UHGV virus genome: UHGV-0084588
Origin: a virus
Strand: one strand, 5' to 3'
Length of the DNA stretch: 64,000 nucleotides
The position numbers and the translations under genes are program-made. Positions 7,891 to 53,337 of the stretch are shown piece by piece; position 1 is the first letter of the stretch; each line of letters opens with the position of its first letter. Below the pieces are notes generated by a model. The model was not told the origin of the DNA and made no database searches. It was given only the letters and a program-made list of their open reading frames with translations.

Positions 7891-10800
7891 TTAATCGCGA
7901 ATGATTACCGCCTGCACTTTATTGTTGGTGTCGATAAACGACATTACGCGCTCCTTGTTAAGATAAGGAGGTATCGGTAACGCAGCGTAATCCGCCAGGC
8001 TGTTATTAAATTCAGTTGCCACTAACGCATTAAGCGTTTCGGGGTCTGAGCTGACACCGGCCAATTCCATGACGCGTACTCGATTTAATGAGGAATAGTT
8101 GCTAATATAGTCCAACAACGTACCGTAGACTTTATTCGCAGTTGCGCTGTCTGCTGTAGAGCGGATGTTGGCACGAACCTCATCCTCATAAAGTCCCCCT
8201 AAACCGTAGTAAATAGGGGTATACGGATCATTAACAATAGGTTCGATATTGAACCCGGTTAAACGGTCGACTAATGGGATTTTCTGCGTAGTTCCCCCTG
8301 CTGCCGTACAGCTTACGTATTTATCTGTCGTGGATAAAAACACCACGATAGTATACACAGTGCCAGCTAAAGTCAGCGATGCATTAAACGTTATTGCGTT
8401 GTTTGCACCACGGGTGTGGGTAAACGTTACGTCAGGTTGTAATGAACTCCACGGTGCAGCTGTAACACGCTTCGTTGGTGTGAAACCTACCACTACCGAT
8501 TTCCCGCTACCGAAGTTCAAACCGAACCCTGCGTAACAATATTCACCGTTACTGTCAGTTAAACGATAACCGCGAGTGATGAGTAATGACAACCGCATAA
8601 ACTCGCCGTCGGTGTTCTTCCAACAACCTAAAACAGTTTCTAACACTGTTCCGGTTTTTGCGTTGCTTTCTGTTTCCCAACTTACCCGCATTCCTGCGTT
8701 TTTGAAAGTCGGGAATAAGTTGTGAATAAAACCATGAAGGTTATCACTTACCCCTTTCGCATCGAAAACCCACTTTGATGCGAGCTGGTCGTATTTCACC
8801 CCGTCTAAGGCTCTATACTGTCCACCGACGACATAACGCCAATCTGCTTCACCACGTACTACTGCCTGGAGTCCCGAAGCCCAGCAGGGCGCACCTACCG
8901 TTAAGTTAGCTAACCCAAGCACTGCACGTGTCGTGGAGCGGTGAATATGCGCGTTATCGTCAGCAGCGTGATCTTTCAGTTCACGGAAATCGTCCAGCCG
9001 TGTGACGTTACGCATCTCTGTAACGAACACTTCAGAAAGGTCATTGACGCCGATTAATCCCACACGCGTCATGGTATCCGTTTCAGCCTGACTGTAGCTG
9101 TCGTGAATAATGTACTTCGCTTTGTTGTCAACAATATCAACAAAAATCCCCGCGTAGATTTCTGTATTCAACTTCGGAAAACGTTCACTGACGTTAATCG
9201 TCGTCAACGGCACGGTGTATGTTTCGCCACCGATAAAATACGTTGATGCTGGAAGTGTAACCAGTATTTTGTCTTTGACCGTAACATCAATTAAGTCGTT
9301 ACCAGACTTACCAAAACGTATAATGTCGAGACGTGCCTCCGAGTCAACACCCCCGACAGCACTTTCCAATTTTTCAATCTGGGTAGTCTGCGCCATTACC
9401 ACACTGCCATCGAGTGCTAAAGTCGCGTCGTCCACATCCAGACCAAATTTAATCAAGCCACGTTTCGCGGTGGTTGCGTTCCCGGTACCAAATGCGGTAA
9501 ATGGGTGGTGGTGTACTTTAGGCGAATATTTATCTAACTCCGCCTGCTGTGCTGTGGAGATCGGCAAATCGACATCGGGTGTATTCGCAACGTTACCCAA
9601 ACCAAAGGTAATTTTGTCGATAGTAACTGAGCTGGTAAGTTGCATGTCGTTAATGTACGATTTAGCTGCAACTAGTTTACCGGTAAACTCAGCGTCCAGT
9701 TTTTCAATCAATGCGGGGGTTGCTGCGAGATTTTCAGCCGTACCGAATTCGTCCGTTAACTGCCAACACGCTAACGTAGTAACGTCTTCGGCAACCGGAA
9801 GAATAAACGTTGCTACGAATGGCGATGCTTTAATCCCACTACCGGTAAGTTCCACCGTAGCTGTAGATGCACCGTAGAATAATCCCGTACCACCTGCAGT
9901 ATTGCCCGGCAAATACGGCGCTACCGTGGTGGGGTCTAAGAGCTTCTTACCACGCCACAGTAATCCTCGGTCATCGGGATATAGCACAAGCTGGTTGTCG
10001 CCCGCTTGCAACGTTACCGGGTTGTTACCCACGTTAACATCAGTAGAACCTTGGCCGATGAACTTAATGGATTTCGGGTCAACGACAAACTGGGCACCTA
10101 AACGGGTCCCGTCAACGACATCGGGCGCTTTCTTAATGGTAACCGTGTTACCTTTATTCCCCGAGCTAATAGTGACGTTGTCAGCAACATTACCGATCAA
10201 TGATTTAAAGTGGTGGCTATTCTCCAATGCTTCTAGTGCAGCGTCCATGTTAGTGAAGTTAACACGTGCACTATATGTCTTGCCGTTTATGGTAATAACG
10301 ACATCAAACACGTTCCCTGTGCGTTTCAGTTGAAAACGCAGCGTAAAATCCCCATCCGGTATTGCTGGATTAGGAGCTTGGGAAAGATACTGAACTTCCG
10401 GTGTGGGATTCGAAAAACCGTTCAGTTCCAACTTAACGCCGACTTTACCCGCAGAAATTTCACCTGTAAGCTGGATAAATTTTCCAGAGTTAGTACCAGG
10501 TTTCTGATAGAAACGTAGGCTAACCGTACCGACGGCTTCATTACCAGACGCTGTTTTACGTCCGGTAACAATAAAGTCAATATCTTGCAGGTTAGCAGGT
10601 ACCGCATTAAAAGAAGTGGTGAATCCACTCTTCGTTCCTGTGTAACGAAGCGCACCGTGATACCTGTGACCATTACTAACGTAGCTTTCGCTAAAACGAG
10701 GACTCACGTATTTCGACATTGACACCGGGTCAACTTCCGTCGTGAACGAAGTAAAACCGGGCAGCGTTCCAATAGTTCCGTTAGCCGTTTTCGTAGCTGA

Positions 10801-22233: not shown

Positions 22234-22842
22234 ATGAACGAAATTACCTTAGTTCGTTTTCTTGAAGCGATGCAAAATGCAGAGCGTTTTTCGCATACGC
22301 CTTTATTCATCGACTTAATGGAAGAGGAAGTAGAGGGCTTCCTGGCGTATCCACGCTTACGGGAGTATTTTAAACGTAAAACGCCGAATGCTTACGAAAA
22401 ATTGGTTTACGCACTTGAGAACAGTTCAACATTGTTAACGACGCCTTTCAAGGCGTTGGAGGCTTTAGACCCGGCTGGTACCACAAGTATCCCACAACGT
22501 GTTGTGTTCTACTATATCGACCACGATCGAATTAAAGCCGATGTTGTTAACTGGATCTCTGAAAACGCAGTTCCAGAAACACGCACTTTTAATCTCTGTC
22601 CTGTAGAAGAAGGGTGGAAGGTCGGCAATCACTATTCTTATCCATACCAATCCATTAAATCACCGTTTTTATACCCGGTTTATCTGGACGACGTTACGCC
22701 AGGAAATTGCATTCCGGTAACAAACCTGATCTGTGCACTGACAATGGAAGTCTTAGCCACAAAGGCGGGACAGGTTTGGGTAGAAAACGCGAAGAACATC
22801 GATTATTGGACTTCAATGGGTTATCACCCATATACCAAATAA
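22234..22842 (+). CDS. Hypothetical protein (202 aa)
   Basis: AAAGGAAAG RBS; flanked by terminators; no motif recognised. Confidence 0.5.
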   Translation: MNEITLVRFLEAMQNAERFSHTPLFIDLMEEEVEGFLAYPRLREYFKRKTPNAYEKLVYALENSSTLLTTPFKALEALDPAGTTSIPQRVVFYYIDHDRIKADVVNWISENAVPETRTFNLCPVEEGWKVGNHYSYPYQSIKSPFLYPVYLDDVTPGNCIPVTNLICALTMEVLATKAGQVWVENAKNIDYWTSMGYHPYTK

Positions 22843-22847
22843 CGTTT

Positions 22848-22890
22848 GGGAGAACCTTCGGGTTCTCCCTTCTCTGTTTTTTTTTCTTTT
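22848..22890 (+). terminator. Intrinsic terminator
   Basis: GGGAGAACC-TTCG-GGTTCTCCC followed by a long T tract. Confidence 0.7.
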
Positions 22891-22921: not shown

Positions 22922-25426
22922 ATGCTAAAAGTTGAACGCATTATACTCAAAGGTTTTACGGGGATGGGATTACATGAAATTGAAACTTTCGATTTCACTA
23001 TCCAGTCTCCAACAACAATTATCCTGGGTGGGAACGGTTGCGGGAAAACCAGTCTACTGTCTGTATTCTTACCCTTAGCACCGGCTAAAACTGAATTCAG
23101 AGACGGCGGTTCTTACACGAACTACTGTTTAGTTGGTGATCAACGGTATCGATTCAAAGTTGCCCGTAAAGGTAACTCTTTGGTTTGCGATATTGAAAAT
23201 CTGACCACGGGAGCAAAGATCGTCGAGCAAGGTAATGCGAAGGTCTACAACTCCCGTGTTGAAGAAATCACGGGTATTACGAAAGAAATTAAAGAACTAT
23301 TAAATGGTGATGTTTTGTTAACCGATGCGGGAACCGAATTACGCCGTAAATGGTTTTACCGTTTAAGTACCTCTGATCTCACATACGCGTTAGGGTTTTA
23401 TCAACGTTTGCGTAAAAACCTTACCGCCTTAAATGGGGGTATTGAAATCACCAGTCGCAAGATTGCCGAATTACGGACGCGTGTTATTGAGAACGAGGAA
23501 GAACGACAACAATTAGCAACGAGATTAAAAGGTCTGGAATCGGATTTACGTGAACTGAACCGAGAAATCGAACAGTTGCCAGGATTAAATCGTGCTGTCA
23601 CGATCGAAACAATCCAAGCGTTATTAAACGGTTTGGGTCCAACCATCGACGCAATATTACAACATCGTGGTGGGTTGCCTACTGATGAACAGATACTGGT
23701 CGCCCGACAAAATGAAGCGACAGCCCGCGAAGCCGTCGTTTCTACCGAAACAGAGGTATCGATGTTGAATAAAGATTTATCGCTATTGATGGATGAGTCA
23801 ACACGACAAGACTACCTGATGCGGAATCACGAAGGTCTCAAGAATACACTGGCACGTTTACGTGAGTTACTTACCAAGTGGGACACCGAACATCTCTTTC
23901 CAGGTTTATTTAACGATAACGTTAATTTAGACCAACTTCGTGCGGCTACCGATGCGCGTGTTTGGGGACAACGGTTGGGGACAACACTGGACGCTATTCA
24001 TTCAACCGAGAAACTCAATGTTTTGGAAGAACGTCTTCTGGTGATGGATCAAAAAACCGCAGGATTACGGGATAGACTCCAGCGAGTGGAGAACGTTTTA
24101 CAGAATTTAAATCACGAGCGTAACCACTACTTAGAAACGGCAGAAGTGGATTGTCCGCAGTGTCGGTTTAAGTTTCGGCCAGGTGTTACGCGTTCTTTAC
24201 CTGAACTCGAGTCATCGATTCGTGGACAACAACAGCAGCGGACGGAACTGCAAACGCAGTTAGAGACTTTATTACGCGATCGTGTTGAATTAGAATCTGA
24301 TGTAACTTATATGCGGCAGGTTCGTGAGATTGTACTGACGTATTCAAAAGACCCTGTATTGAGCATGTTCTTTAAGCGTTTGCAAGAACGTAACGTTTTC
24401 ACAGAGTCTCGCGAGCAGTTCGGGAGTCTATGCGCAGCGTTTGACGGTGAGTTGTACTCTGCTATTGAGTACCATGAAACCCGACAACGGTTAGTGAAAG
24501 CGGAAAAAGAATGGCAGGATGCCGTGGCGGCCGTTGGTAACGTCGATGGTGCTTTACAACAAAAGATCGCCTTCCAACAGTCACGGTTAGGTAAAGCCAC
24601 AGAGATGCTCTCAATGCGTCGTAGAGAGCACGAACTGGCTAACACGACACTTACCTATCTAGTGAATGTTAAACGTGCTGTAGATGATTTCAGTGCGTTA
24701 TTCGAACGGTTAGAGAGTGATGTTAAGGTTACTTTGACAAATACGGTCGTCGAGGAGCTCTTACGAGTGCGGGAAGGGAAGCTGGATGCTTTTACAACTG
24801 CACGCGAACGTTATCGTCAGATGGAAAACGAATTGAATCAGCTCAACAGTTTGGAGCGCGAACTTACAGACTTACAAGCCCAACAGTTCAATAACAAACT
24901 GATGATTCAAGCCTTCTCGCCAGAAAAGGGTGTACTTAGAAAGTATTTTTACAACGCTATCGTTAGAATCACAGAGTTAATGACGCGTTATATCGAACAG
25001 GTCTGGACGTACCCCATGCGCGTTATGCCCTGTGATCTCACTGACGGTGATTTGGATTATACTTTTCCTGTCCAGCTAAAAACGCACCCTGAGCCTGTTC
25101 CTGACGTGCGTAAAGGGTCTAAGGCACAGCGTGCTATATTTAATCTGATGTTCAGACTGACTGCGTACAAAGCGTTGAAGTTGCATCAGTTTCCGTTGCT
25201 TTTGGATGAGCCTTCGGAAGGCATGGACGAGGAGCACCGTAATAACCTGGTCGGCTTTATTAAAACGTTAGCAAACTCGGGAGAATTTTCACAGCTGTTG
25301 GTAGTCTCCCACGAAGCCGAGGTTCATTCTAAACTTAATGAAGCATCGTACTGTGTCATCGAACCGGAAGGAGTGACATTGCCTGCGGTGTATAACGAAG
25401 GAGTAAAAATTGTTTATGCAAACTGA
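22922..25426 (+). CDS. Rad50/SbcC-like (SMC-type) ATPase
   Basis: Walker A ILGGNGCGKTSLLS near the N-terminus, long charged coiled-coil-like middle, C-terminal Walker B/D-loop LLLDEPSEGMDEEH and VVSHEAEV. ATG at 22922 after GGAGGTGGG; the track start 22910 is an alternative codon. Confidence 0.7.
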   Translation: MLKVERIILKGFTGMGLHEIETFDFTIQSPTTIILGGNGCGKTSLLSVFLPLAPAKTEFRDGGSYTNYCLVGDQRYRFKVARKGNSLVCDIENLTTGAKIVEQGNAKVYNSRVEEITGITKEIKELLNGDVLLTDAGTELRRKWFYRLSTSDLTYALGFYQRLRKNLTALNGGIEITSRKIAELRTRVIENEEERQQLATRLKGLESDLRELNREIEQLPGLNRAVTIETIQALLNGLGPTIDAILQHRGGLPTDEQILVARQNEATAREAVVSTETEVSMLNKDLSLLMDESTRQDYLMRNHEGLKNTLARLRELLTKWDTEHLFPGLFNDNVNLDQLRAATDARVWGQRLGTTLDAIHSTEKLNVLEERLLVMDQKTAGLRDRLQRVENVLQNLNHERNHYLETAEVDCPQCRFKFRPGVTRSLPELESSIRGQQQQRTELQTQLETLLRDRVELESDVTYMRQVREIVLTYSKDPVLSMFFKRLQERNVFTESREQFGSLCAAFDGELYSAIEYHETRQRLVKAEKEWQDAVAAVGNVDGALQQKIAFQQSRLGKATEMLSMRRREHELANTTLTYLVNVKRAVDDFSALFERLESDVKVTLTNTVVEELLRVREGKLDAFTTARERYRQMENELNQLNSLERELTDLQAQQFNNKLMIQAFSPEKGVLRKYFYNAIVRITELMTRYIEQVWTYPMRVMPCDLTDGDLDYTFPVQLKTHPEPVPDVRKGSKAQRAIFNLMFRLTAYKALKLHQFPLLLDEPSEGMDEEHRNNLVGFIKTLANSGEFSQLLVVSHEAEVHSKLNEASYCVIEPEGVTLPAVYNEGVKIVYAN

Positions 25427-25595
25427 TTGGTTCCGTCGTTTTATGGACGCGGCGGGGTTTGGTTTCATGTCCATTCTAGCGGTTCTTTATGTCATGTTTT
25501 GCGTGGTGATGATTTTATGGGTAGTTTCATCTTATCTGATTAAACTATCGTGGGGTTCAATTTGGCGTCAACGTGAATGCGAATGGCGGAATTAG
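25416..25595 (+). CDS. Small membrane protein (about 60 aa)
   Basis: Track ORF; one strongly hydrophobic helix (FGFMSILAVLYVMFCVVMILWVVSSYLI); overlaps the ATPase 3' end. Confidence 0.35.
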   Translation: MQTDWFRRFMDAAGFGFMSILAVLYVMFCVVMILWVVSSYLIKLSWGSIWRQRECEWRN

Positions 25596-25606
25596 GAGAA
25601 GGGAAT

Positions 25607-25696
25607 ATGGTTGAAGGGGTTCTGTTAACACTTGGTGCGATGTGGTTAATCGGTAAAGGTTTAAACTTGCTGGTTAAACAACACAGATGGGCGTTT
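25607..25696 (+). CDS. Possible 29-aa hydrophobic peptide
   Basis: AGGAGAAGGGAAT-ATG; MVEGVLLTLGAMWLIGKGLNLLVKQQMGV; below the track size cutoff; speculative. Confidence 0.2.
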
Positions 25697-25762
25697 GAAG
25701 ATTAAACGCCCAAATAATCCGGAAAATACCCTCCGGCGTGAGGGTATTACTAGGAGCAGAAA

Positions 25763-25891
25763 ATGACCTCGATAAACACTACGAATGTAGCGATATCCGC
25801 ATTATACGATGCGGAACTTTCATGGGGTGGATTAATAATCACCACGGCCATATTAGCCGCAGCGGCATTCGTCATCGCGCGTTGGTTTTAA
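25763..25891 (+). CDS. Possible 42-aa tail-anchored membrane peptide
   Basis: TAGGAGCAGAAA-ATG; MTSINTTNVAISALYDAELSWGGLIITTAILAAAAFVIARWF; preferred over the overlapping 67-aa track ORF, which lacks an RBS. Confidence 0.3.
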   Translation: MTSINTTNVAISALYDAELSWGGLIITTAILAAAAFVIARWF

Positions 25892-25916: not shown

Positions 25917-26366
25917 TTGCAAATGGAAATTTATTTGTTGAACGCATCTTCTAAAGTCGGCGAACGACAAGCTGCCGATTTACTCAAACTACACTACCGT
26001 TACTTGGACCACCAGGCTACATTACTAAAAATCAAAACGTCGGTACCGAAATTAAAAGCTCGACAACTGATCGAAGGTAACTGCATAGTTCTGGTGTATC
26101 AGGATGATGTCGCGGTAGGATACTGTAGTTATCGGAATCGTAACGGTTCACTTAAGATACGTTCGGTATACGTGCTCCCAGACTATCGTCAGCGGGGTGT
26201 AATGAAAGAGATTTTCAAAGCAATTGCCGCCGATGAAGTTTTCGGTGAAATTGTTACTGGCATGTATGCGAAATGTAAAGAAGCAAAAGAGTATTTCATC
26301 CGACGCGGTTATCAGGCGGTTTACTCACACGATCGTGAGTGGGTCGATTTTAGCAAAACATTCTAA
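25917..26366 (+). CDS. GNAT-family N-acetyltransferase (putative)
   Basis: 149 aa; motif-A-like VLPDYRQRGVMKEIFKAI in the expected position for the acetyl-CoA binding loop. Confidence 0.5.
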   Translation: MQMEIYLLNASSKVGERQAADLLKLHYRYLDHQATLLKIKTSVPKLKARQLIEGNCIVLVYQDDVAVGYCSYRNRNGSLKIRSVYVLPDYRQRGVMKEIFKAIAADEVFGEIVTGMYAKCKEAKEYFIRRGYQAVYSHDREWVDFSKTF

Positions 26367-27604: not shown

Positions 27605-27688
27605 ACACAACAAAGGAGTATTAGCTGTCCGCGCCGTCATTTCGTCTTACGGAATACGGAAATGTATAAATCCAACTGGAGAAACAAA

Positions 27689-28387
27689 ATGTTTCGTATC
27701 TTCTTTCTTTTACTGGTAACACTTTTCGCGTTTAACGCACAGGCGTCAACGTCAACGCCGCAAACTAAACATCAGCGTGAATTTACACAAATCCAACATC
27801 GGTTCGAAAAGGTCAGTCCGTTAATTGTGGAAATCTCACGAAAGCAAGGCGTTGATCCTAAGCTGATGATTACGCTGATTTATCGCGAATCGCGTTTTGA
27901 TCCCAAGGCTTACAACAAAAGCACACGAGCGCACAGCCTAGTACAGATGCTTCCAAGTACCAAGCGCAATCTGCTAAAGCTTTATGGAAAAGAATTAGGT
28001 CTTAGTCAGAACGCTGATTTGTATAATCCGCGTAACGCTGTTTTGCTGGCTACCGCGTATGTTAAACATCTTGAGAAGGGGTTAACCAAACGACTCAAAC
28101 GCAAGCCCACCATGGCTGAAGTTGCGTTAGCTTACCACTGGGGTGAAAGTGGCGCTCACACGCGAATCAAAAGCAAATCTCGAGCAGCACAACGAGAAAT
28201 GGCAGGCTTTATGAAAGACGCCGCGTTCTATAGCGCGAAAATCGATGTGCCTGTTGTTGTGGGCTCGGCCCCACGTCAGCTTGCGTTTGCGAAGAAAACA
28301 CCACGTCAGATTCAATTGGCGGAAGTTAGTAAAATTTGGGATACGATAAACACGAGTTTTCCAATCAATAGAGGAGTTACCCTTTGA
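27689..28387 (+). CDS. Secreted lytic transglycosylase (SLT domain), candidate endolysin
   Basis: Signal peptide MFRIFFLLLVTLFAFNAQA; SLT catalytic region LIYRESRFDPKAYNKSTRAHSLVQMLPST (E-S ... S ... A ... LxQ pattern). Alternative upstream ATG at 27662. Confidence 0.6.
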   Translation: MFRIFFLLLVTLFAFNAQASTSTPQTKHQREFTQIQHRFEKVSPLIVEISRKQGVDPKLMITLIYRESRFDPKAYNKSTRAHSLVQMLPSTKRNLLKLYGKELGLSQNADLYNPRNAVLLATAYVKHLEKGLTKRLKRKPTMAEVALAYHWGESGAHTRIKSKSRAAQREMAGFMKDAAFYSAKIDVPVVVGSAPRQLAFAKKTPRQIQLAEVSKIWDTINTSFPINRGVTL

Positions 28388-28893
28388 GCATCGTTGTAAC
28401 CGATTGGTATAAAGGCATTACAAAAGCCGCACAACTAACCGCGAAAGATATTTACGGTATCGTCCGAAGCAGCATCGAAGACGAGATTAAATCGGATGAA
28501 GAATTCGCAGAGAAACACGAATTTTACGATGCTTTACCTACAGCATTCGGTGATGACGAAGAAGAAGGTTTAGAGTTTGACTGGAATGTCAACCTTGCCT
28601 TGCTGTGGATTTGTGGTTTACGTCCAACGGTAAAAGAAACCGAAGAAGGGAAAGTCTTGCTTTGGAATTTTACCGGACAGTATAACCGTAGCCTAGTCTT
28701 TAAACAGGCGTATATGGACGCTACTGTAGAACTTCAGAAACTGCTACTTGGCGAAAACACATACTGCCAGCGTAGTTTTCTAACGATTCTGGAAAAACTT
28801 GTGTTAACACACAAAGTCTGGCGTAAAGAAGACGCCCCAGAGCACATGTTCATTTTAGAGTACGCTGTCATTCCAAATCAGCCGTTCTTCTAA
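28384..28893 (+). CDS. Hypothetical protein (169 aa)
   Basis: Track ORF with TTG start overlapping the SLT gene stop; acidic; terminator follows. Confidence 0.4.
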   Translation: MSIVVTDWYKGITKAAQLTAKDIYGIVRSSIEDEIKSDEEFAEKHEFYDALPTAFGDDEEEGLEFDWNVNLALLWICGLRPTVKETEEGKVLLWNFTGQYNRSLVFKQAYMDATVELQKLLLGENTYCQRSFLTILEKLVLTHKVWRKEDAPEHMFILEYAVIPNQPFF

Positions 28894-28959: not shown

Positions 28960-29439
28960 ATGATAAAATTCATTTGGCGTTACCCAACACGTTTTTGGTT
29001 TGTGGTGCTTGAACTGTGTATGGTTCTTGTAGCGGTTACTTTTATCGATGCACCTGCCTCACAGTTGACCATTTTCTGTCTTTTCGTGGCAGTTCCTGTA
29101 TGGGTTATTGCGAAGGCTATTAAGTTCGCCATGGTGAGTTGGGCGAATTATACGTGTCCGTATAAACCTAGACAAATCATGAACTGGTTAATGTTTATTG
29201 AAGAACGTTTACCGGCGCAACGTAAATTACTGGGCTGGTCGTCAATGTTAGATATTGCGCTAGAAACCAATGCAAAGTTCCCCGGCGCGAAAAACCCGTA
29301 TTTGCTGTTGGCGGTAATTGTTGCGCAACAAAAACTGGTAGGCGATCGTTGGTTGCCAGAAGAAGCGAAAGCGTATATCCGTAAACATCCAAAAGCTTTT
29401 TACTCGGTAGGTCAATGGCGTAACTTACCACTATTTTAA
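28960..29439 (+). CDS. Membrane protein with two N-terminal TM helices (holin-like topology, unproven)
   Basis: 159 aa; FWFVVLELCMVLVAVTFI and IFCLFVAVPVWVIAKAI hydrophobic segments; sits downstream of the SLT gene. Confidence 0.45.
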   Translation: MIKFIWRYPTRFWFVVLELCMVLVAVTFIDAPASQLTIFCLFVAVPVWVIAKAIKFAMVSWANYTCPYKPRQIMNWLMFIEERLPAQRKLLGWSSMLDIALETNAKFPGAKNPYLLLAVIVAQQKLVGDRWLPEEAKAYIRKHPKAFYSVGQWRNLPLF

Positions 29440-33102: not shown

Positions 33103-33606
33103 ATGGGTTCATTTTTTAAAGTGCTTCCGTTCTTCCTTCAGATGTTAATGGAAGCATTTAAACCAGGAGAAGGAGAAAACGTATCAAGAGCAAGCAAGAT
33201 AATGACTCTAATCATCACGATCTTGTTGTCGTATTCTGGCTTCGTCTCCTACGCCTATGTACAACAGTTTCACGCGCTCGTTGCAGTGCAGTCTCATGAC
33301 ACTTATATGTCGCAGTCTTACCAAGAGATGAAACAAGATCGAGATAAACTAAAAGAAGATAATGGGAAGTTATACGACAGACTCTTCGTTTGCCTCGGCC
33401 AGAAACCGCCATATGAAAGCACGTTTAATTCATCGAAAGCGAGCGGTACGACGAAGGATCTGTCCTCGGCAAAACCAGAAACTCCTGTTAATCCGGCTTC
33501 AACACCAGAACAACGTAAAGAGGCTTCGGCGAGACCTGTTGGTAATTTAAACGCGAACAGTTTTCGACAGGAGATCATAAAGACGCTATCGTCTTCTAAG
33601 GAGTGA
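33103..33606 (+). CDS. Membrane-anchored protein with one TM helix and charged coiled-coil-like region
   Basis: 167 aa; TM IMTLIITILLSYSGFVSYAYV followed by QEMKQDRDKLKEDNGKLYDRL; GAGGTG RBS. Confidence 0.45.
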   Translation: MGSFFKVLPFFLQMLMEAFKPGEGENVSRASKIMTLIITILLSYSGFVSYAYVQQFHALVAVQSHDTYMSQSYQEMKQDRDKLKEDNGKLYDRLFVCLGQKPPYESTFNSSKASGTTKDLSSAKPETPVNPASTPEQRKEASARPVGNLNANSFRQEIIKTLSSSKE

Positions 33607-33609
33607 TTG

Positions 33610-34065
33610 ATGAAAATGCTATTATTCATCATGGTAGTGTTCGTGGGGTTGGTGAGTAATAGCTACGGTGACGAAGTTGAACGTCCAGCTTATAGGCCAC
33701 TGGAGCTTCCTCCTGAACCACCAATAATGGTGAATTGGAAAATTGACAAGAATGCAATGCGTGAGTATGTTGCAGATGTCAACACCTATGCTTATTACGT
33801 TTATGTCTACACACGAAATTTAAACCAGCAAGCCGCTAAACGTGGCTGGAGTCCACCAATGTTGGCTCCACTTTGTGAACGCTATGAGTTACCGAAATTA
33901 CACGTTGTACCTGAGCGCTTGTCTCTTGATGAGGGTTCTTTAACAGCCCAAGAGATTAGCCGTGATTTATCGCGTAAACTCAATAATTTGTTGTGGAATT
34001 ACCGTTCCGACCGTCAGGCACTGCTCGATTCGTATAACCAATACTTGACATCGTGTTTGTACTGA
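33610..34065 (+). CDS. Secreted protein (signal peptide, no lipobox)
   Basis: ATG at 33610 after AAGGAG (track start 33607 is TTG); MKMLLFIMVVFVGLVSNSYG signal; PPEPP motif; terminator follows. Confidence 0.45.
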   Translation: MKMLLFIMVVFVGLVSNSYGDEVERPAYRPLELPPEPPIMVNWKIDKNAMREYVADVNTYAYYVYVYTRNLNQQAAKRGWSPPMLAPLCERYELPKLHVVPERLSLDEGSLTAQEISRDLSRKLNNLLWNYRSDRQALLDSYNQYLTSCLY

Positions 34066-34069
34066 CACT

Positions 34070-34111
34070 CCCTCCTGTACCCTTCGTGGTACAGGAGGGT
34101 CTTTCTTTTTA
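34070..34111 (+). terminator. Intrinsic terminator
   Basis: CCCTCCTGTACC-CTTCGT-GGTACAGGAGGG followed by TCTTTCTTTTT. Confidence 0.7.
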
Positions 34112-34154
34112 ACGTTTACGACTATTTTAATGTAGACTAACAGGAGAATTCAAC

Positions 34155-34889
34155 ATGACCTACCCAAAAATTATCACCCCGTACACACCGACGTTGGTTA
34201 TTGGTGCCGATGTAGAAACCAAATCGTTACGCCCCGATGCTTATCTGTTGAGTGCAGGATTAGTGGCGTTTGACGTCCCTACCTTGAAAATGGTTGGTTC
34301 CTCATACATCCGTATCGATCCTAACGATCCTAAAGCAAAAGCTATTTTCCACGAAGACCCACAAACGGTTGGATGGTGGGAAGGTAAAGGCGAACCTGAA
34401 TACGCACCGTCTCGTGAAGCCTATGCGGAAGCATGGGGTGGAACAACAGCATTGCCTGATGCTCTGTGGGCGATGCAAAAATGGCTCGGGGAGATCACCG
34501 CAAAACATGAGTTTGTTATTACCATGCGCGGTCCCGACTTCGATGCGCCGATTTTCATGAACGCTTTCGCACAGTGCGATATTCCGCCAGGGAAGTTCCG
34601 TAAATTTAGTGCGCTGGATAGCGATCGCACCGCAGAGCGTTTAGCCTTTGCGTTTGGTTTCGAACCCGACTTAACGGTAGAGCAAGTTTATTGGACGCGC
34701 GGTAAGCCCGCTTTTGAGCACCACGCAATGTGGGATGCAGCAAAAGAAGCCTACACCACGGCACGTATTTATCACCTCGCTTTGGTCACCCGCCAATACG
34801 GGTTTGAACGCGCCAAAGCCTGTCACGAAGAACTGAAAACTGGCGAGTATGTTGCGCCGCAGATTCGTGATCAATTAACCAGGGATTAA
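34155..34889 (+). CDS. DEDDh-type 3'-5' exonuclease (DnaQ/RNase T-like)
   Basis: 244 aa; ExoI-like VIGADVETKS (D-x-E), ExoIII-like EHHAMWDAAKEAY (H-x-A-x-x-D). Confidence 0.6.
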   Translation: MTYPKIITPYTPTLVIGADVETKSLRPDAYLLSAGLVAFDVPTLKMVGSSYIRIDPNDPKAKAIFHEDPQTVGWWEGKGEPEYAPSREAYAEAWGGTTALPDALWAMQKWLGEITAKHEFVITMRGPDFDAPIFMNAFAQCDIPPGKFRKFSALDSDRTAERLAFAFGFEPDLTVEQVYWTRGKPAFEHHAMWDAAKEAYTTARIYHLALVTRQYGFERAKACHEELKTGEYVAPQIRDQLTRD

Positions 34890-51994: not shown

Positions 51995-52303
51995 ATGGAA
52001 AACTATTCGGGTTGGGCAATTTCGCAGTGCATTGGCTATTCTTTACGTTCTTTAGTGCGTACACTTTATAACAAAAACTCAGGCGAAACTATTACACCAC
52101 AGCTACTGGGCAAATTGGAAGTTGAAGTTAACCACAAATTAAAACAGTTACTCGACAGCCACGTAAGAACAATGCGTTGGGAGTTCTTGCTACGCGGTAA
52201 GAAGCCAACAATTACCGTTGTAGCAGAAGGCAGTGAAATCGTACTGCAGTCCAACGCAGACCTATTTGAAATTTTAACTGAACTCGAAAAGGACAAAATC
52301 TGA
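51995..52303 (+). CDS. Hypothetical protein (102 aa)
   Basis: Track ORF; stop overlaps the thyA start (TGATG). Confidence 0.4.
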
Positions 52304-53337
52304 TGAAACAGTATTTAGCGTTAATGCAAGACATTCTGGATAACGGTGTTGTTAAGAAAGACCGCACAGGTGTAGGGACACTTTCTGTATTCGGCCGTCA
52401 ACTACGTTTTGACCTGAAAGAAGGTTTCCCATTAGTCACTACGAAAAAGGTTCACCTGAAAAGTATCATTCATGAACTGTTGTGGTTCTTAAACGGTGAC
52501 ACTAACGTGAAGTACCTGCAAGAGAACGGGGTAAAAATCTGGAATGCATGGAGTGATGAAGAGGGGAACTTAGGGCCAGTTTATGGTAAACAATGGCGCG
52601 AATGGCGCGACTGTAAAGTTGTGGAGTGCCATGACGTAAGACGTACACAACAACTGATGCAGCGGGGTTACAAGTATATTGGGAATATGAAGGAAGATGG
52701 TACGACGTATTTGGTTTATGAAAAACCACATGACCAGATCAGCAAAGTTATCCAACAACTTCGTGAAGACCCTGACTCCCGCCGTATTATCGTTAGCGCC
52801 TGGAATGTAGGTGACCTGGACGATATGGCACTTAATCCATGCCACAACTATTTCCAATTCTACACAACAGAAATGACGTTGCTTGAACGACTGGATTGGT
52901 ACGAAGCAAATGAACCGGAAAAATTTGCGAACGCGCCACTTATTAATCACGAAGATATTGATGATGAAGAACGACTTCATGAAACTTTAGATCGTGAAGG
53001 TATCCCTCGTCGTAAGCTTTCATGTTTTTACATGATGCGCAGCAACGATGTCGCATTAGGAAAACCGTTCAACATCGCGTCATACGCTCTGTTAACTCAT
53101 ATGGTTGCCCAACAAGTGAATATGGTTCCCGATGAGTTAGTTTATAGTGGGGTCGATGTGCATTTATATCTGAACCACATCGATCAAATAAAACTCCAGT
53201 TGACTCGTGAGCCGTACCCGTTACCTAAATTGGTTATTAAACGTAAACCCGAATCTATCTTCGACTACAAATACGAGGACTTTGAAGTAGTCGGTTACCA
53301 ATCACACCCACACATCGCCATGCCTGTCGCGGTGTAA
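52303..53337 (+). CDS. thyA: Thymidylate synthase (ThyA-type) with two insertions
   Basis: MKQYL..MQ..LD.G...[93 protein letters not shown] match recalled E. coli ThyA almost residue for residue; catalytic Cys in PCH retained. Confidence 0.9.

Follow-up and report, generated by a model that had tools for sequence, protein, structure and literature searches.

Positions 22,922 to 25,891 of a 64,000-nucleotide (nt) stretch of the UHGV virus genome UHGV-0084588 (the whole stretch is called the window here) carry a gene for a large SbcC/Rad50-type ATPase followed by three very small open reading frames (ORFs) in the same orientation. In the window translation, the ATPase lies in a plus-strand frame that stays open between 22910 and 25426, and the start was placed at the ATG at 22922 because all relatives begin with MLKVERI and a GGAGG motif lies 5 nt before this ATG; the gene of 834 amino acids (aa) at 22922-25426 given in an earlier sequence-only reading of this DNA is therefore correct. 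An identical SbcC protein is encoded on a 220,786-bp human-metagenome contig (ENA ERZ28659250 scaffold_21, ZHAN15-1), of which the window makes up positions 128,001-192,000. The window is about a quarter of the approximately 225-kb genome of an SPN3US/Asesino-like jumbo phage of the Chimalliviridae (phiKZ-related phages). When the locus was searched by megablast, no match was found to GenBank phages, PLSDB plasmids, or RefSeq complete E. coli genomes; as judged by SbcC, the closest phages are the Erwinia phages Asesino (70.9%), Stratton, and phiEaH2 at 70-71% aa identity, followed by the SPN3US group (58%) and the phiKZ-like phages (22-25%). We propose that, with high probability, the phage has an SbcCD nuclease of its own, of the Mre11-Rad50 type, to which the 834-aa ORF supplies the SbcC subunit, and that the gene for the SbcD subunit is located elsewhere in the genome. 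The gene and its motifs are as follows.

22922-25426, plus strand: SbcC/Rad50-type ABC (ATP-binding cassette) ATPase, 834 aa, orthologue of SPN3US gp186 and phiKZ orf165
23027-23050, plus strand: Walker A (P-loop) GGNGCGKT, residues 36-43 (translation, alignment)
24152-24163, plus strand: CxxC zinc-hook motif CPQC, residues 411-414, at the protein midpoint between the helical arms
25115-25132, plus strand: position of the ABC signature motif, GSKAQR, residues 732-737, degenerate (alignment)
25196-25228, plus strand: Walker B and D-loop LLLDEPSEGMD, residues 759-769 (translation, alignment)
25301-25315, plus strand: H-loop (switch) VVSHE, residues 794-798 (translation, alignment)

Motifs, family and predicted structure of the ATPase

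The Walker A, Walker B/D-loop, and H-loop motifs are all conserved in an alignment of 16 chimallivirus homologues (22-99% identity), in which the P-loop pattern G-x-N-G-x-G-K-[ST] is kept down to 22% identity and both hook cysteines are invariant. Among 22 database homologues the invariant residues include C411 and C414 of the hook, D762 and E763 of Walker B, and S796 and H797 of the H-loop. The translated protein has a split ABC ATPase head, with Walker A in the N-terminal part and Walker B, the D-loop, and the H-loop in the C-terminal part. The assignment to the Rad50/SbcC/gp46-type ATPases with Walker A and Walker B/D-loop motifs, made in the sequence-only reading, agrees with the motifs, with the match to PHROG_77 'SbcC-like' (7.2e-90), and with the fold comparison (Foldseek) described below; the zinc hook that had been named there as a point to look for is the CPQC motif at residues 411-414. 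The top NCBIfam model for the ATPase is Rad50 (5.8e-10), and its top PDB sequence matches are also Rad50.

In the AlphaFold2 model of SbcC (mean predicted local distance difference test score, pLDDT, 81) a beta-rich N-terminal lobe is followed by two helical arms, a non-helical apex between them, and a C-terminal lobe. The predicted arms (approximately residues 154-405 and 426-664, about 250 residues each) return to the head, so that the model places long helices between the two head halves; the apex (residues 406-425) is a non-helical segment of about 20 residues that holds the CxxC motif and has no hinge domain. A predicted zinc hook therefore appears to take the place of the globular hinge of SMC proteins. 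In a Foldseek search of the PDB with this model, the top match was C. thermophilum Rad50 (7zr1, 2.8e-16).

Orthologues of the protein have been described before. In Salmonella phage SPN3US the SbcC subunit, gp186, is essential, amber mutants being lethal; its inter-head region exceeds T4 gp46's by about 300 residues, and its similarity to T4 is undetectable by BLASTP (PMC5105663). The window protein is 58% identical to gp186 over the full length (834 vs 836 aa) with the same motifs including CPQC, and SPN3US shares with the window a distant SbcD gene, a small transmembrane ORF overlapping or abutting the SbcC stop codon, and, further on, more small ORFs, an acetyltransferase gene, a macro-domain gene, and a transglycosylase gene; it is nonetheless another species and probably another genus. 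The closest counterparts among isolates are Asesino gp207 and the phiEaH2 'putative SMC domain-containing protein' (Erskinevirus), with 70-71% aa identity and a syntenic neighbourhood, Asesino differing from the window phage in host and genus. More distantly, the phiKZ orf165 family is represented by the phiKZ-like phage SL2, with about 24% full-length identity, the invariant CxxC, and SbcD about 110 kb away; unlike the window, SL2 has no same-strand small transmembrane ORFs downstream of SbcC and has a divergent baseplate gene upstream. The phiKZ gene orf165 itself is a core-genome SbcC-like gene that was affected by antisense knockdown (PMC12571901) and was free of transposon insertions (PMC12676376), results that mark it as needed.

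The predicted partner nuclease SbcD

The sequence-only reading had noted that no gene in the window shows phosphoesterase motifs, and this was borne out: tblastn with SPN3US-type SbcD found no SbcD in the 64-kb window (best E 1.4), a hidden Markov model (HMM) of the 26-homologue family run with --max on six-frame ORFs of at least 50 aa found none (best E 0.9), and Pfam Metallophos was matched neither by the genes at 12.9-35.4 kb nor by 20 further window ORFs. When a partner is not found in 64 kb taken from a phiKZ-like genome of 225 kb, this does not show that the genome lacks it; in phiKZ-like phages, genes linked in function are routinely scattered. Of the two possibilities left by the sequence-only reading, that the nuclease is encoded elsewhere or that the ATPase works in a different context, the first was upheld by a closely related contig. 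In the 225,000-bp contig IMGVR_UViG_3300029126_000001 the SbcC locus has 94.9% nucleotide identity to the window over 8.5 kb; its SbcC (53.7-56.2 kb) is 99% identical in aa sequence to that of the window, its SbcD (143.1-144.2 kb) is 99% identical to the SbcD cluster member P0121, and the two genes are about 87 kb apart. A second contig also carries both genes (SbcC 87%, SbcD 93%).

The two subunits are conserved together throughout the family. A nuclease homologue encoded elsewhere and co-conserved with the ATPase is what the sequence-only reading had named as speaking against an unusual arrangement. SbcC homologues were found by tblastn in 290 jumbo-phage records at 290 places, that is, one copy per genome, and SPN3US-type SbcD was found in an equal number of phage records (290). 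Counted by host genus, the SbcC/SbcD records are 81/81 for Pseudomonas, 62/62 for Erwinia, 24/25 for Salmonella, 23/22 for Vibrio, 21/21 for Serratia, 19/19 for Aeromonas, 16/16 for Klebsiella, and 13/13 for Ralstonia. In every genome for which both positions are listed (SPN3US, phiEaH2, Phobos, Wellington, Noxifer, SL2, PhiPizzaParty, RisingSun, and others) the genes are separated by roughly 80-150 kb; in the Pharokka annotation of SPLA5c, for example, the 'SbcD-like subunit' is at 33,135-34,283 and the SbcC-like gene at 178,935-181,445.

The SbcD family is a genuine Mre11/SbcD homologue as judged from profile matches and predicted phosphoesterase motifs, which are kept. In a Pfam search with a lone SPN3US-type SbcD the Metallophos match was under the cut-off (E = 0.032); when the 26-sequence SbcD profile was searched against the PDB, T. 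maritima Mre11 (3qg5) was matched over nearly its full length (3.2e-11), P. furiosus Mre11 and E. coli SbcD were matched as well, and the match to PHROG_100 was 2.3e-59. Across the 26 sequences there is no or almost no variation in the metal-binding motifs D-x-H, G-D, S-H-D, H180 (M-H-G in P0121), and H-x-H; motif V of P0121 reads H-H-D-H.

The adjacent, co-transcribed sbcDC or gene 46-47 organisation was not found in the window lineage or its relatives. The expectation that ATPase and nuclease genes lie side by side, taken in the sequence-only reading from T4, does not apply to the phiKZ-related phages, in which the split was described in 2016: SPN3US gp27 is SbcD, and the gp186 and gp27 genes are 'drastically separated' (Thomas et al. 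2016, J Virol, PMC5105663). With its ABC head, coiled coil, zinc hook, and Mre11-type phosphoesterase partner, the window system is predicted to be built like gp46/gp47 of T4 and SbcCD of E. coli and presumably works in the same way; in those two the nuclease and ATPase genes are adjacent or in one operon, and here they are tens of kb apart. Gene adjacency is typical of the SbcCD family and does not define the protein family.

By analogy with the family, two SbcC subunits would dimerise through the zinc hook and the ATP-engaged heads, the SbcC dimer would bind a dimer of SbcD, and ATP would be used to clamp and cut DNA ends and hairpins. Such end processing may feed recombination-dependent replication and repair of the phage genome, as suggested by the family and by SPN3US and T4 genetics, and the site of action is presumably inside the phage nucleus, a structure that both Asesino and SPN3US have been shown to build (PMC13282480). 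The scattering of SbcC and SbcD, a known hallmark of phiKZ-related genomes, reflects the general genome shuffling of these phages and does not point to a new function.

Several points weigh against this assignment. The NCBIfam Rad50 match of the ATPase is far under the curated cut-off, and its Pfam SMC_N match reaches 33.8 bits vs a cut-off of 40. At the aligned position of the ABC signature, the window and the whole SPN3US-like clade read GSKAQ, with S733 and Q736 invariant in the clade, and the distant homologues from Vibrio and Aeromonas phages have the canonical CSGGE; the degenerate GSKAQ may affect the ATP-driven engagement of the heads. In SbcD, motif III is G-T-P-S-H-D in all 26 members and so has Ser where the G-N-H-D motif of Mre11 has Asn. 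The apparent link to SbcD is drawn from the contig with 94.9% identity over 8.5 kb and from family-wide co-occurrence, not from the window's own contig, and the SbcC-SbcD complex of the phiKZ-like phages is putative. The accessory inner-membrane role that we assign to the small ORFs (see below) is a guess.

Every element of the finding has been published for orthologues, so that the arrangement is already known and the window gene is a new species-level orthologue. The finding adds the SbcC orthologue of an undescribed, widespread enterobacterial jumbo phage, which is little beyond annotation, and confirms that in the lineage of the window, too, SbcC and SbcD are split and small membrane ORFs follow SbcC.

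In some genome variants of this phage a gene with faint NUMOD1/I-HmuI-like matches replaces part of a 535-aa gene about 2 kb upstream of SbcD, and in others the 535-aa gene is broken up into pieces of 499 and 83 aa; the variation looks like a mobile-element polymorphism with a homing-endonuclease-like signature. In the Salmonella phages SPFM1, 6, 9, 12, 15, and 20, several SbcC/SbcD entries align over just 6-25% of the query with high HMM scores, suggesting frameshifted or garbled gene models in those assemblies.

The small membrane ORFs and the alternative explanations

The three small ORFs, which are tightly packed with SbcC, are named A, B, and D here.

25410-25595, plus strand: ORF A, predicted single-pass membrane protein, 61 aa (TTG start at 25410) or 59 aa (ATG start at 25416); GGAG at 25400-25403
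25607-25705, plus strand: ORF B, predicted hydrophobic/amphipathic peptide, 32 aa; its AGGAG ribosome-binding site (RBS) overlaps the stop codon of ORF A
25763-25891, plus strand: ORF D, 42 aa, predicted C-terminal transmembrane helix, ending in RWF; AGGAG 6 nt upstream

The three tiny hydrophobic ORFs of the sequence-only reading are real and constrained genes, with corrected sizes: the second has 32 aa and not about 29, and the first has 61 or 59 aa. A good RBS had been seen on two of them only, and all three in fact have an AGGAG-type Shine-Dalgarno motif 5-8 nt upstream. ORFs A and B are called as genes on ENA ERZ28659250 scaffold_21; ORF D is uncalled there and is also unannotated in SPN3US-type records. 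Over 17 residues the Kyte-Doolittle hydropathy peaks at 2.95 in A and at 2.45 in D, values that support a predicted transmembrane helix; for B, with about 1.5 (1.47 when the longer 42-aa ORF 25577-25705 is scored), the predicted helix is weaker and amphipathic.

By both position and sequence, ORF A is homologous to gp187 of SPN3US and gp208 of Asesino (phmmer: phiEaH2 3.6e-8, Asesino 7e-4, SPN3US 1e-3; phrog_16515, 2.6e-4). ORF B is the most widely conserved of the three, with phmmer homologues in 12 of 12 related loci at E<=0.1 (11 at E<0.01) and a match to phrog_13448 (8.7e-9); tblastn with this 32-aa peptide gave solely Erskinevirus matches with weak E-values. ORF D matches the relatives with 87% SbcC identity (phmmer 2e-16) and SPN3US/SPLA5c (1e-3; an unannotated ORF at 8967-9098 of locus L002). 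Compared with a relative whose SbcC is 87% identical, the three ORFs have nonsynonymous divergence (pN) of 0.21-0.26, synonymous divergence (pS) of 0.46-0.77, and dN/dS of about 0.08-0.38 (about 0.25 for A and 0.28-0.38 for B; for D, pN is 0.23 vs pS 0.74-0.77). Since pN is far below pS and the frames are kept, ORFs A, B, and D are coding and constrained. Such conservation and selection run counter, if indirectly, to the other point that the sequence-only reading had set against its finding, a lack of expression of the small peptides. In this one genome pair the small ORFs are 57-67% identical in aa sequence vs 87% for SbcC, i.e., the peptides evolve much faster.

ORF A overlaps the SbcC stop codon by 17 nt (TTG start) or 11 nt (ATG start). 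Its start is found between -16 and +4 nt relative to the SbcC stop in each of 13 SPN3US-like loci, namely those of ten IMG/VR contigs, SPLA5c, Asesino (with the annotated gp208 start), and the window itself, and in Phobos (46% SbcC identity) a small transmembrane ORF starts at -7; ORF A is probably translationally coupled to SbcC. A B-type peptide follows ORF A in the ten IMG/VR loci, in Asesino, and in SPLA5c. The number of small ORFs differs between genera: SPN3US and Asesino carry an ORF of about 70-86 aa with two transmembrane segments (Asesino gp209 type) and a '...ALTQGWF' peptide, both absent from the window, and Asesino has A, B, the two-segment ORF, and the GWF peptide and no D-type ORF. 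Among the distant chimalliviruses, Phobos alone has a same-strand small transmembrane ORF after SbcC; none was found in the eight others examined (the phiKZ-like phage SL2, Goslar, Noxifer, Ea35-70, RSL2, a Vibrio phage, pAEv1810, and RisingSun). The small ORFs are therefore an insertion particular to the SPN3US-like clade rather than an accessory that goes with every SbcCD.

The small membrane proteins, at least that of ORF A, could be dedicated SbcCD partners that tether or regulate the nuclease at the membrane. A membrane-anchor role has been suggested for SPN3US gp187, a 63-aa protein with a predicted transmembrane domain encoded immediately downstream of gp186, which was likened to T4 gp47.1, earlier suggested to be a membrane anchor of gp46/47; small ORFs (46.1, 46.2, and 47.1) also lie around the T4 gp46/gp47 pair (Thomas et al. 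2016, PMC5105663). Besides this published analogy, the start of ORF A kept at the SbcC stop in the 13 loci and Phobos, which fits translational coupling, and the purifying selection on the peptides speak for such a role; in its position beside SbcC and its predicted transmembrane character ORF A would fit a putative gp47.1-like anchor. However, the eight distant phages keep SbcC and SbcD and have no such ORF, so that SbcCD in this family can do without the peptides, which are unlikely to be its obligatory partners. Their fast evolution relative to SbcC and their varying number between genera also argue against a dedicated partner, and as the DNA replicates in a protein-shelled nucleus, a lipid anchor would make little sense. 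We therefore regard a membrane tether of SbcCD as unlikely; an unrelated inner-membrane role (envelope, lysis-related, or exclusion-type) seems more likely than that of an SbcCD anchor. In the assignment that we prefer, SbcC as a subunit of a complete phage SbcCD, the small proteins are probably co-expressed with SbcC, and our best guess is that they would be accessory factors in the host inner membrane, dispensable for SbcCD chemistry.

It is also conceivable, and in our opinion rather improbable, that the two to five fast-evolving small membrane proteins encoded between SbcC and the transglycosylase gene form a functional module, with ORF A coupled to SbcC. Were this true, the module would tie DNA-end processing to a membrane compartment, e.g., the lipid vesicle around the injected chimallivirus genome early in infection, or would time lysis.

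The second possibility left by the sequence-only reading, an ATPase acting without an Mre11-type nuclease, for example by organising DNA like an SMC protein, by sensing in the manner of Lamassu LmuB, or by serving as a decoy against host defence, found no support, and we consider it very unlikely. What could be said for it is that the PADLOC LmuB model matches SbcC over its full length (1.5e-18), that Smc5/6, condensin, Lamassu LmuB, MukB, and JetC are also matched by Foldseek, that the signature motif is degenerate, and that the SbcC and SbcD genes are never adjacent. The Foldseek matches to these other proteins, however, rank below Rad50, which is on top by both sequence and fold; the apex is an invariant CxxC hook and not a globular hinge; and single-copy SbcC co-occurs with a single SbcD-type nuclease across the 290 records. 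The zinc hook and the co-conserved Mre11-type gene together identify the protein as Rad50/SbcC and not as a hinge-bearing SMC. A protein of the SMC/MukB/condensin type was rejected because of the apex of about 20 residues with CxxC and no hinge and because SMC matches rank under Rad50, and a Lamassu LmuB or other defence ATPase because of the phage-gene context, the status of the gene as a core phage gene, the zinc hook, and the co-conservation with SbcD. No LmuA- or LmuC-like gene or nuclease gene was found beside SbcC among the neighbouring phage genes, and the similarity to LmuB is expected because Lamassu is derived from the Rad50/Mre11 machinery (PMC12663957).

The very short length of the three small ORFs, the lack of any Pfam match, and the missing annotation of ORF D might suggest that they are no genes but frames left open by chance in a spacer between genes; this is extremely unlikely in view of the three Shine-Dalgarno motifs at 5-8 nt spacing, the frames kept with pN far below pS (synonymous sites being near saturation in the relative compared), the homologues in other genera, and the PHROG families for A and B.

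Gene neighbourhood and occurrence of the phage

Two hairpins were noted, one ahead of SbcC and one between ORFs B and D.

22848-22869, plus strand: terminator-like GC-rich hairpin with a T-rich tail, 9-bp stem with 6 GC pairs (pattern scan)
25718-25755, plus strand: hairpin with a 9-bp core stem and no T-tract after it; -16 kcal/mol, z = -1.8 (weak, not statistically remarkable)

The terminator-like hairpin is located between the upstream gene (22234-22842) and the SbcC RBS, where it probably ends the preceding transcription unit; its position suggests that SbcC and the small ORFs start a separate, putative transcription unit. Downstream of the small ORFs the window contains a GNAT acetyltransferase gene (25917-26366), two ORFs of no family, and a macro-domain gene (to 27588), followed 2.2 kb downstream of SbcC by an SLT lytic transglycosylase gene (27662-28387) whose product has an N-terminal hydrophobic signal-like segment. 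In pAEv1810 and RisingSun a lytic transglycosylase gene comes directly after SbcC; in the SPN3US-like clade the small ORFs and the other genes named are inserted between the two. No Pfam match was obtained for the three small ORFs or for the downstream ORFs 28384-28893 and 28960-29439 (membrane-protein candidate). Further along the window, the thymidylate synthase gene at 52303-53337 encodes 344 aa and matches the 266-position Pfam profile end to end (6.7e-111), implying that the enzyme carries about 80 residues of insertion.

In public data the SbcC cluster has 285 members and the SbcD cluster 248. Members of both were found in many public runs, including NCBI isolate assemblies labelled as Salmonella enterica (several serovars), E. 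coli, and Shigella flexneri, and in host-labelled isolate assemblies the phage is present on contigs of 220-228 kb, which is the phage genome size. This occurrence suggests a carrier state or pseudolysogeny, or else recurrent co-culture contamination, of a common uncultured enterobacterial chimallivirus.

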